A stretch of 4,863 nucleotides of DNA, taken from positions 1-4,863 of IMG/VR virus record IMGVR_UViG_2778261453_000001; one strand, 5' to 3'. The position numbers were made by a program. The DNA comes from a virus. Taxonomy: Duplodnaviria; Heunggongvirae; Uroviricota; Caudoviricetes. Below are positions 1 to 3,000 of the stretch, in pieces; the stretch's first letter is position 1, and each line of letters starts with the position of its first letter.

Positions 1-3000
1 ATTTCGCCGTCTGCCTCCGCAATGGCCACCGCCACATCCAGCACATCTTCCGCTTCACGCGTATCGTGTTTCACATCCTCAATCTCGCGTAACGCGGCAC
101 GACGACCAATTTTAAAATTGGTATCCAGCTGACCGATAATAGTTGCGCTAATCGCATTAATTTCCGAGGTAAACGCAGACAACGCAGGCTGATTACGTAA
201 GACCTGTTCGATCTTCGCTTTCTCGGATGCCTCGCATTCACCATCTGCATAGGCCACCAGGTATGCAGCGTTAATCACCGCCTGTGCCAGATCGCGTTTC
301 TCAAACTTTTTAATTTCCGCTGCCGCTCTGCGGGTTTTCTTTTTGAAGATTCCAAACATCGTGACGTTCCTTTGGGTGGGTGAGCCAACGCCCGGGAGCG
401 ATCTGCCCACAGAGAAAGTCACACTGACCACTCCGTAAGCTCACCCCCGAAAGGCTCTGTGGTTGATATGCGCCGGGCGTGGCGCAGATACAAAAAAGGC
501 CCGCCGAAGCGAGCCTGGAAAATAAGTGTGGCGCGTTGTAGTGGAGTCGAACCACTGACCGATTGCTTAGAAGGCAATTGCTCTGTCCGGCTGAGCTAAC
601 AACGCAGAATACCGATAATGGACCGCCATCGGGGACCCGCCCCCGCACCAACAACCCTGTTATGGTGTCGTCTGCTCTTCCTGATAAGCTAATGGCGGTT
701 TGTGATGGTGGCCCTTGCTGGATTTGAACCAGCGACCTGGCGATTATGAGTCGCTCGCTCTCACCACTGAGCTAAAGGGCCGGGCGCAGGATAATAACGG
801 TACGTAACTAATTCTGCAATATCATCCGTTCTGACTGACTACATTCTGAACTTCCCTGACCGTCTGCTCAAAACGCCCGCTCTCCAGCTCAACGCCAATT
901 GCACGACGCCCCAGCGCCATTGCTGCTTTGACGCTACGGACATAAAAAAGCCAGCCACTGGGGGAGGCTGGCAAACTCGTAGAGCAAAATGCTGTTACGC
1001 AAACTTCGTTACAGGGTTATCCTGCAATACTTAAAATATACAATATTTAGAAAACTAATAGTGCTATATGCGATTTTTAAGATTTTGTTATTAATTACGG
1101 TCGCACCTTCCTTTCTGTGTACTTTCCGTATAGCTCACAGGATTCTGGGTACAAAAAAACCCGCGCATCGGCGGGTTCGACTGCGTGGCAATGTAACCAC
1201 TCTTATCATGATATGCAGATTTTTACGATCGTAAACTATTTTTTCGCTGATAAAATACAGAGGTTCTCCCTCCCGGCAATTCACGCTCAACATACCGATC
1301 CATCTCAAGCCTCACTCCCAGCATCATCAGCATGCCTTCAACAATCCCCTCCGCTTTGTGAAGGCGTTTACCTATACAGGTGTCAGAGCACCCATGTTTC
1401 CGTGCCAACGCCATGAACGTCTCCCCCAACACGTAATAATCAACCAGCAAGTCATGCAGATCGCGATTGTTCCGGTAAAGGCGGGCTATGCACCCGCATA
1501 TAATCATCGCGTCATCGTCACAACACTGTGGACGTGATTTTACTTTTTCGGGGATCAGTCCCTTAAATCCGGCAGCAATGGGCGACCATGTAACATCCTC
1601 ATAGTTATTTGCCGCCCATGCACCCCAGCGCTCAAGAACCTGCCGGATATCACGCATCAGTATCTTTACCCCATCCGCGATGAACCATAAGAACACCGTT
1701 GACAATAGCGTGTCTTTTTCCTTCTTTATCGCCAGTGTATTTTCTGACCGTGTTGCGACTACAGTTCAGTATTCTGGCTACCTCGGTCTGATTTTCATAT
1801 GCCTCAACGAGCATGTCAGGAATGGTTTTTACTGTGAACGTCATGCGGCCTCACTTCTGCTGTTTCGCAGGTCTTTAAGTTTCTGCTGATACTTCGCCTT
1901 GATGGCCCTGCACTCTTCGACAGTCCAGCGATGGCGGTTATGGTTTGATTCGATTTCGTCTACTGCTTCCTGCCCGATGCGATTAATCAGTTCGACGCGA
2001 TACGGAACGAGATTTCCGCTTTTGTGCTGGTTGCACACCACGCATTGCTTGTGAATATTGCGTTCATCAAATCGGAGTTGAGGTGCCGCAGCAGTTGTCC
2101 GGTAATGTCCGGCATCCCACTGAGCAGACGTGAGCGTTCCGCACGAGATACATGGTAAGTCGCGGTCTCTTTCTCTGATGAAGGCGTTTACGGCTTGTTG
2201 GGCTTGTTTAATCCAGTAACTGCGGGGCTTTAAGGCGAGTTTTCGAATCTTAATTTTATCTTTCTGTTTCTGCTCCTCTCGTCGTCGTTTCTTCTCTGCT
2301 GTTTTTTCCGCCTTTTCGCGTTCTTTATTTCGTCGTTCGAGCGCTAATTTAGTTCCGTGTTCCGGGCTGCACCACCACTGATTTGAGAATGCCGGGTGAA
2401 ACCATTCCTTACAGATTTTGCATTTCCTTCGCGCTGGTTTAGCCATTAAGCAGCCTCCCCTGTTACTTTAAGCATTCCGTTATCTAGCAGCTTTCTTGTC
2501 AGCCACTGTTGACCACGCCCGGTGATTTTTGTGGTGAACGATATCTGTATTCCGTGATTTGTGTTGACCGCTGTTTCTTTCACTGTGAAATAGCCACGAT
2601 CCATATATTCCTGCATTGGCACATTGCGCCGGGAGCCTGAAGCAATAAGGATTTTGTGATCGCGCATCCACGCAAACAGTTTGTTTGGACCAATACCAAC
2701 AACCTTTGCAAAGTTTCCAATCAAAATTCCGCTGGCCTCGCCAACTCGATCGGCAAACTCAACTTTAGGTGCTGCGAGAGCAAGCTGTTTCTCCAGTTCA
2801 GCCTTCTGGTCTTCAAGGTCGGCCGCAAGGCGCAATGCCTCAGAAAAGGTTTGTGGTATTTTCGCGGTTGCCCCTTCGAGTTCTCGCCAGCGGTCAACAA
2901 GGCGAGCGGTGAATTCCGGCGACAACTGAGCGACGACAATAATGCTGTCTCGCTTACCTTGTTCGCCTTCGAATACATACACACGAAAACTTTGATTTAA

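Follow-up and report, generated by a model that had tools for sequence, protein, structure and literature searches.

In the Shiga toxin-converting phage 933W, a module formed by the late promoter pR' and the terminator tR' makes stx2 dependent on the antiterminator Q, such that lysogens give only the short StxS RNA (PMC7547250; PMC10042803), and Stx2-type Q dependence at this site has been described elsewhere as well (PMC4104026). This PR' 'moron' site has already been described for prophages of the Sakai strain, including Sp5, which carries stx2, Sp10, which carries the gene considered here, and others (Tree et al. 2014, PMC4104026). Here we analysed a stretch of 4,863 nucleotides (nt) from a virus of the Caudoviricetes (IMG/VR record IMGVR_UViG_2778261453_000001, positions 1 to 4,863; hereafter the window), focusing on a TerB-family gene, tciA, and on the structured RNA leader that precedes it. 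All late-region features are read on the minus strand and coordinates are those of the window, whose minus strand as a whole corresponds to the part of a 933W-like lambdoid prophage that carries nin, Q and the late leader; it holds codons 1-119 of tciA, with the last 24 codons and the following gene, tciB, lying beyond window position 1. Reference genomes and phage databases already annotate a TerB-like tciA at the stx position in lambdoid prophages without Stx; the leader appears to be the one element here that is undescribed, and an experimentally tractable one. Taken jointly, we consider it quite likely that this open reading frame (ORF) is tciA, which opens a two-gene accessory cassette in the PR'-proximal moron site, and that it is read under Q, gated by its leader, and serves together with TciB in a lytic-phase role.

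Comparison with 933W revealed 95% identity across window positions 481-3269, with homology ending at 481, and a megablast search against phages limited the Stx2-phage homology to positions 481-1300. Pairwise BLAST and alignment placed the breakpoint just past the shared terminator hairpin that follows argO, which is 43 bp before stxA2 in 933W and 122 nt before tciA in the window, while downstream homology returns 16 bp past the tciB stop and 87 bp past the stxB2 stop, just before nanS-p. Because homology breaks and resumes at both edges, a 732-bp leader-tciA-tciB cassette replaces a 1369-bp stx2AB segment. The insertion point, flanks (argO terminator hairpin, nanS-p), strand and Q/pR'/tR' module are those of stx2AB in 933W and Sp5; Q is identical to Q933W at 145 of 146 positions and pR', qut and tR' are nearly base-identical, whereas the cargo is unrelated and stx2A begins 43 bp past the breakpoint without a structured leader. 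The tciAB cassette thus occupies precisely the place of stx2AB, flanked by the post-tRNA terminator hairpin and nanS-p, with tciA on the late-operon strand between pR'/tR' and the tRNAs on one side and nanS-p and the lysis genes on the other. The initial annotation had assigned the gene to the stx position of Stx phages, and this comparison bears that out at nucleotide resolution. The analogy that it drew with nmpC of prophage DLP12 holds for position, since nmpC occupies the interval between quuD and essD (L385 2030-4326, E. coli K-12), but not for Q-dependent cargo: nmpC is on the opposite strand and, unlike stx or tciA, is therefore not drivable by Q read-through. It had also called the partners of the gene unknown, which no longer stands, as relatives supply them in the form of tciB (encoding a DUF3927 protein), followed by nanS-p and the lysis genes.

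Evaluating the gene itself, we found that the single-domain ORF at 1..359 (-), read from 359 to 1, has 119 open codons out of 143, runs off the window still open, and matches the Pfam TerB family (PF05099) with 40.5 bits (E=3.8e-10; gathering cutoff 24.4). Relatives in which the first 480 window bases are 100% identical carry the frame uninterrupted to 143 amino acids, and the full-length protein from such a relative keeps the TerB match above the gathering score (60.2 bits, E=2.9e-16), matches PHROG 632 over positions 1-143/143 (E=1.7e-69), and aligns over residues 14-137 with the solved TerB structure 2JXU (E=4.4e-8). The initial annotation had proposed a TerB-family gene just downstream of the Q/late-leader/tRNA module and had named two outcomes that would speak against it, a full-length protein that failed TerB models and matched a late or lysis protein instead, or a stop just beyond the window; neither was found in these relatives, and Q and two tRNAs lie upstream of the window ORF on the same strand. 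The best match to the whole window among complete E. coli genomes covers 91% of it at 97.8% identity. Many complete genomes match window positions 1-480 with 100% identity, among them O157:H7 Sakai at its prophage Sp10, whose copy is ECs_1959 (143 amino acids, annotated 'TciA/TerB-like protein'; RefSeq WP_000466957.1), and the gene is named tciA in phage JLK-2012. Both of these lambdoid loci share the tciA-tciB pair (DNA 100% for Sp10 over window 1-480, or protein 97%) and its position after Q and tRNAs and before nanS-p and lysis genes, and they differ in essentially nothing other than Q, which is of other types there and of the 933W type in the window. Relative to JLK-2012 tciA there are 29 synonymous and 6 non-synonymous substitutions (ratio of non-synonymous to synonymous rates, dN/dS, 0.047; dS=0.47), and the tciA frame is under purifying selection. 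Two D-x6-E acidic motifs, D39/E46 (inside the window) and D117/E124 (of which only D117 is inside the window), are invariant in an alignment of 8 phage homologues with identities down to 28% (P1, P7, a Klebsiella prophage, Pseudomonas phage AF, the N4-like phage Pollock and an Erwinia jumbo phage among them), and we regard these residues as putatively metal-binding. The TerB of ter operons (2JXU) shares the Pfam family, the alignable residues 14-137 and the paired acidic motifs, but it is distant at the E-value given above, it sits in a terZABCDEF context that has no counterpart here, and its partner is TerC/TerD rather than a DUF3927 peptide.

We then considered how tciA would be transcribed. 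The gene is co-oriented with Q (1223..1663 (-), 933W type; Pfam Phage_antitermQ, E=7.6e-51), and three terminator-like hairpins separate it from the pR'-like promoter (1235-1208 (-), near-identical to 933W). These are the tR' hairpin (1178-1157 (-), also near-identical to 933W), a second hairpin with U-run that lies past tR', where a DNA-methylase remnant begins (944..972 (-), identified from sequence and aligning with the 933W segment annotated 'possible rho-independent terminator upstream of tRNA genes'), and an intrinsic-terminator-like hairpin with U-run between argO and the leader (497..516 (-), common to 933W, where the equivalent of 516-497 is annotated as 'possible rho-independent terminator upstream of the stx genes'). 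A sigma-70 consensus scan of the minus strand over 360-528 gave no promoter match before tciA. From its position and strand, the terminators in between and the failure of that scan to match a promoter, we infer that tciA is expressed on induction, and that it is most likely silent in the lysogen and transcribed by Q-modified polymerase thereafter. As with stx2, its only transcripts would be those that Q-modified RNA polymerase extends from pR' past tR', across the tRNAs and past the 516-497 hairpin. In 933W, the short transcript from the equivalent of 1157-1235 is the StxS small RNA (sRNA; PMC7547250), and because the pR'-tR' segment is near-identical to that of 933W, this non-Stx prophage should also make a short StxS-type sRNA in lysogens (window ~1157-1207).

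The leader itself spans ~135-137 nt (360..496 (-), read from 496 to 360), ends in a Shine-Dalgarno sequence (SD; 372-368) and the ATG (359-357), and gave a single-sequence fold with z=-3.57. Comparative analysis resolved a first set of four minus-strand helices: the hairpin H0 (485-481/474-470, loop ACGCYC), HA (CCACAGAG:CUCUGUGG; 462-455/414-407) and the inner hairpin HB (429-425/421-417), and HD (UUCGGGGGUG:CGCUCCCGGG; 451-442/400-391), which crosses HA to form a pseudoknot. Our first covariation test, on a MAFFT alignment of 33 representatives, found this H0/HA/HB/HD model (28 pairs) to be 95.4% paired, with two-sided changes at 11/28 pairs as against 5.2 +/- 1.4 in shuffles (0/500 of which reach 11) and 1-7 pairs in slid registers. 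With diverged copies added (alignment A5, model-fitted to H0, HA and HB, with HD left unfitted), two-sided changes rose to 20/28 pairs, where shuffled alignments had 10.7 +/- 1.9 and slid registers 5-10, and were distributed over HA (8/8), H0 (5/5), HB (4/5) and HD (3/10). Loops and junctions stay constant while the stems are maintained through compensatory double changes. Because G-U pairs are frequent, the structure is to be placed on the sense-strand RNA.

Strands of these helices also take part in a second, alternative set of pairings. This set includes an alternative long-range helix, HL (GGGUGAGCC:GGCUCACCC; 446-438/386-378 (-)), and an alternative pairing of an anti-SD (CCUUU, 454-450 (-)) with the SD (AAAGG, 373-369), the latter supported by conservation and folding. 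HL is 88.9% paired as against 76.3% with shuffled partners (0/1000), and its variants are fully compensated, for example GAUGAGCCC:GGGUUCAUC and AAAGAGCCC:GGGCUCUUU. A further leader helix, P1, goes from GAGCC:GGCUC to GAACC:GGUUC. The CCUUU partner of the SD is invariant, and SD and ATG stand at a fixed distance. Partition-function folds of 52 diverse members gave a mean SD unpaired probability of 0.32, compared with 0.50 when the upstream sequence was shuffled, with CCUU(U) as the main SD partner in most members. What lies upstream of the ORF is thus a structure supported by compensatory changes that includes the SD, as expected of a cis-regulatory structured leader. Several other assignments did not hold: a helix HE (GCUUACGGAG:CUCUGUGGGC) taken from the single-sequence minimum-free-energy fold reaches only 68% pairing in the family as a whole, and a hepatitis delta virus (HDV)-like ribozyme, suggested by the strand order a-b-hairpin-a'-b', finds no Rfam ribozyme match and has a C-G first HA pair where HDV-like ribozymes have a G-U wobble. 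Searching the leader against Rfam 15 returned nothing at gathering score and, at E<=10, only mir-156 (E=6.2, noise), while a sub-threshold STnc100 match (E=0.026) lies over the tRNA-Arg and terminator region rather than the leader. Identity with known prophage sRNAs was likewise rejected, as AgvB and AsxR lie 3' of a moron coding sequence (PMC4104026) and PasA and PasD flank an esterase gene (bioRxiv 10.64898/2026.05.13.724894), and the element 5' of TerB is undescribed in both of these sources.

Seeking further copies revealed that the leader is better conserved than the TciA protein, such that near-identical leaders precede 'E. coli-type' and 'P1/Klebsiella-type' TciA proteins that are only 43% identical to one another, and Erwinia jumbo phages still have a recognisable leader before TciA. 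Copies include those at L003 564-708 (-), L005 2929-3073 (-), L107 5981-6115 (+) and L155 4008-4154 (+). Searches with a covariance model and nhmmer recovered weaker copies (37-67 bits, covariance model) before unrelated late-region genes, namely the Bro-N 'ant' gene between R and Rz (933W, Sp10, CB9615), HNH endonucleases and several ORFs of no known family. An IMG/VR motif scan made without tciA as a query gave 120 loci, 114 of them confirmed by nhmmer, with TciA as cargo at 69, Bro-N 'ant' at 35, and single Rha-/KilA-N-like regulators and one HNH endonuclease at the others. The 'ant'-type leader is present in 308 phage records, including 933W, VT1-Sakai, ST64B, ST104, PS34 and HK639, and the leader is annotated as a feature in none of 308+41 phage records. 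A pattern scan of genome contigs yielded 28 matches (about the chance number), of which 9 were real and all in enterobacterial genomes or of a clearly enterobacterial sequence type. Just upstream of the leader, a U-run is found in 161/186 unique elements, consistent with a preceding terminator. In a Pseudescherichia prophage (L107 6113-7111), the leader stands before a gene for a 281-amino-acid secreted protein with a signal peptide in place of tciA, and this gene is followed by one for a 50-amino-acid two-helix TciB-like peptide, which suggests that a small membrane peptide can partner different cargo. Two rearranged forms were also seen. One leader (L141 2364-2503) is chimeric: its 5' and 3' halves belong to different sequence types and leave an uncompensated mismatch in HA, which directly documents recombination within the leader. 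The other form is an insertion of the IS110-family element ISEc20 at one and the same point, after leader nucleotide 53; it was seen in at least 11 prophage records (LC567818, LC567822 and others; PPompW prophages) and truncates the leader and tciA locus.

On comparative and thermodynamic grounds, the leader is probably a portable, two-state, SD-sequestering element of cargo genes inserted in late operons. In the predicted ground state, the SD would pair with the invariant CCUUU that lies ~75 nt ahead of it, and the helix GGGUGAGCY:GGCUCACCC would close this pairing, while the competing and equally conserved pairings (HD with P1) would free the SD, such that translation of tciA would be gated by the leader in addition to Q antitermination. 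A ligand tied to TerB function is disfavoured because the downstream cargos are unrelated. We regard as evenly balanced the broader proposal that the leader belongs to an uncatalogued family of pseudoknotted, probably bistable cis-regulatory RNAs ('moron leaders') that would gate translation of late-operon accessory genes in lambdoid phages of Enterobacterales and some jumbo phages. Its members would be placed directly after an intrinsic terminator, and their cargos would comprise tciA, Bro-N 'ant' (between R and Rz in 933W and other Stx phages), Rha-/KilA-N-like regulators and HNH endonucleases. The nearest described parallel is in phage T4, where I-TevI and the seg genes have 5' leaders that sequester the ribosome-binding site, by a mechanism that depends on a late promoter inside the hairpin. 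Both cases present a folded 5' leader that hides the SD of a non-essential gene inserted in a larger phage transcription unit, and the HNH endonuclease genes among the present cargos recall the homing-endonuclease genes of T4. The two nonetheless differ in that there is no sequence relation, nothing comparable to the T4 late promoter inside the hairpin was found here, and the present leader is larger (~135 nt), pseudoknotted, and possessed of two competing conserved pairing sets.

Because the leader forms the exact left edge of exchangeable cassettes (two 43%-identical tciA alleles, 'ant', HNH, Rha-like and the secreted protein), its conservation might instead reflect a DNA-level mosaic boundary or recombination joint for the swapping of late cassettes, or a hitch-hiking conserved spacer, with no regulatory RNA at all. 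The chimeric leader and the IS110-family insertions at leader position 53 in several prophages fit this explanation, but the compensatory changes in alignment A5, which exceed both shuffled alignments and slid registers, do not, and neither do the frequent G-U pairs, which make sense only on sense-strand RNA, nor the fixed SD-ATG distance and the invariant SD partner. We therefore rate a purely DNA-level role as possible but on the unlikely side, and note that a joint role at the DNA level and an RNA role are not mutually exclusive and could coexist.

To place tciA and tciB in their wider context, we surveyed their distribution. Among 5426 complete E. coli genomes, 1118 (~20%) carry tciA, with a median of 2 copies and a maximum of 8. 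We also sampled 80 IMG/VR prophage loci with near-identical tciA (denominators vary per feature), where tciB follows tciA in 75/76 loci, nanS-p lies downstream in 31/37, same-strand tRNAs lie upstream in 61/79, the upstream Q belongs to four mutually unrelated types, and stxA was present in none of the 80. In relatives, TciB is a 55-amino-acid DUF3927 two-helix membrane peptide (PHROG 1470), encoded outside the window. Beyond these prophages, tblastn found full-length TciA homologues in 130 phage records, both temperate (P1, P7, D6, and Klebsiella and E. coli lambdoid phages) and virulent (Erwinia and Salmonella jumbo phages, N4-like phages such as Pollock, and Pseudomonas phages). A TciB-like 55-amino-acid two-helix peptide is encoded directly after tciA in P1, P7, JLK-2012, ChrisDB and Pollock, and is not found behind tciA in Pseudomonas phage AF. 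Degenerate forms occur as well: at L092 3477-3729 and similar loci in many extraintestinal pathogenic E. coli (ExPEC)-type genomes, degenerate remnants made up of the leader and a fusion of the tciA 5' part to tciB lie among insertion sequence elements, outside intact prophages.

The P1 and P7 loci resemble the lambdoid ones in protein sequence (TciA 42-51% identical over full length, 42% for P1; TciB 50%), in gene order, in overlapping or adjacent stop and start codons, and in lying amid phage tRNA genes, but there the genes belong to the C1-repressed ban operon instead of a late operon under Q, tciC is present as a third gene in P1, and the regions upstream of tciA in P1 and P7 are without the conserved leader. 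CRISPR interference has shown P1 tciABC to be non-essential (PMC10695390). The tciA-tciB pair is found within tRNA clusters in P1 (L006 1616-3276), P7 (L007 1052-2782), JLK-2012 (L004 5986-6980) and Erwinia phage ChrisDB (L008 976-3367), and a functional link between tciAB and tRNAs was considered and rejected, as tRNAs are missing in 6/7 leader-bearing Enterobacterales prophages (5 of them with tciA), in Pollock and in AF. Their co-occurrence is more probably due to a common region that accepts morons than to function. TerB has also been listed, in a 2026 preprint, as one conserved neighbour of the PasA and PasC sRNAs.

Turning to function, TciA, a cytoplasmic TerB-domain protein of 143 amino acids, and TciB would work jointly at the inner membrane in the lytic phase, for instance by buffering ion, metal or envelope stress or by countering a membrane-triggered host response; the pair probably gives the lysogen no tellurite resistance. 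We tentatively favour such a lytic-phase membrane role over tellurite resistance of the lysogen because homologues occur in phages without a lysogenic state, because the genes are placed in lytic-phase transcription units, and because the small membrane partner is obligate. Several points weigh against the combined reading of a Q-read, leader-gated, lytic-phase cassette. The TerB of ter operons is tied to tellurite, colicin and phage resistance, which is a lysogen-benefit phenotype. A weak or non-consensus promoter, or read-through from pT (a putative tRNA promoter annotated upstream of ileZ in 933W), could express tciA in the lysogen. On the side of the leader, HA, HD and HL, with their parallel strand order, do not all fit one simple fold, and the two-state model is a matter of comparative and thermodynamic evidence.

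The ter-operon phenotype and the possible promoters lead to an alternative in which tciA is a lysogenic-conversion gene, expressed uninduced from its own weak promoter or by tRNA-promoter read-through and conferring tellurite or colicin resistance or phage exclusion. Membership of the TerB family, the PHROGs category ('moron, auxiliary metabolic gene and host takeover'), pT of 933W and the retention of the gene in many cryptic prophages, with <=8 copies per genome, are all in its favour, but we judge it unlikely given the hairpin and U-run between argO and tciA with no promoter match between them, the predicted sequestration of the tciA SD, and the occurrence of homologues in phages that are strictly virulent and so form no lysogen that could be protected. 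Moreover, terC, terD, terE and terZ were not annotated within ~9 kb in three annotated relatives, and a lone phage TerB is thought insufficient for tellurite resistance (PMC8421299). A decoy role, in which TciA would imitate the TerB modules found in host defence systems or in the ter operon and thereby block immunity based on membrane surveillance in lytic growth, would suit a bare TerB domain that recurs across unrelated temperate and virulent phages in lytic-phase transcription units, and TerB domains do occur in the validated defence systems Shango (SngA), Bunzi (BnzA) and Dionysus (DinB) (bioRxiv 10.1101/2025.09.30.679545). This nonetheless seems to us rather improbable: it leaves the obligatory membrane partner TciB unexplained, PADLOC gave no significant match, with PDC-S48 the best of the PADLOC-DB models against TciA at E=0.0035 over just 35 residues, and the neighbours of tciA are phage late genes. 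That the ORF is instead a decaying remnant with no present function could be argued from the mosaic character of the region, with its pseudogene fragments (methylase remnant, truncated ORF6N gene, tRNA-like remnant), and from the truncated tciA remnants seen elsewhere (L092), yet it is contradicted by the low dN/dS against a copy already at dS=0.47, by the intact frame in the relatives examined, and by acidic motifs that are invariant among phages of only 28-70% identity, such that we give it very little credence.

The remaining features of the window, all on the minus strand, complete the 933W-like layout around the cassette. Next to the 516-497 hairpin is a tRNA-Arg(UCU), the argO equivalent (529..605; tRNA call plus 933W and Sakai annotation), followed at the place of argN by a 100-nt tRNA-like remnant (606..705; from alignment with 933W) whose acceptor- and T-arm pairings remain like those of argN but whose anticodon region is aberrant and longer; Sakai Sp10 has such a sequence too, and neither ARAGORN (introns on or off) nor Rfam called the remnant. 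A tRNA(CAU), the ileZ equivalent (tRNA-Ile2), occupies 706..781; ARAGORN called it Met and PGAP tRNA-Ile, and it is annotated as ileZ in 933W and Sakai. Between ileZ and tR' lies the DNA-methylase pseudogene remnant (about 822-974), annotated in relatives and common to 933W-type phages. On the far side of Q, the window annotation gives ninH (1844-1650), ninG (2446-1841) and a KilAC antirepressor/roi gene (3174-2446), beyond which 4799-3243 holds C4, a1b1, IsrK and sRNA-Xcc1-type RNAs together with ORF6N antirepressor genes (Rfam and other evidence). Here Rfam matches at 3957-4040, 4601-4684 and 4710-4799 comprise C4 antisense RNA, the a1/b1 target, IsrK and a C4-like sRNA-Xcc1 copy, and these C4-type RNAs precede two tandem ORF6N antirepressor genes (4548-4183 and 3917-3243), one of them truncated. 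This arrangement resembles a P1/P7 immI-like c4-ant module that has been duplicated within a lambdoid nin region.

As to what these observations mean, tciA is among the commonest cargo genes of prophages in enterohaemorrhagic and enteropathogenic E. coli (EHEC/EPEC) and is shared with P1, N4-like and jumbo phages, and because the gene is so common and so widely shared, a defined function for TciA would be broadly relevant. If the proposed role of the leader is true, Q antitermination would not be the sole checkpoint for late-operon cargo, and late-operon cargo genes, including one in the lysis cassette of Stx phages, would share a portable post-transcriptional control element. This would in turn bear on how phages avoid mis-expression of inserted genes, and on the timing of expression around Stx release.

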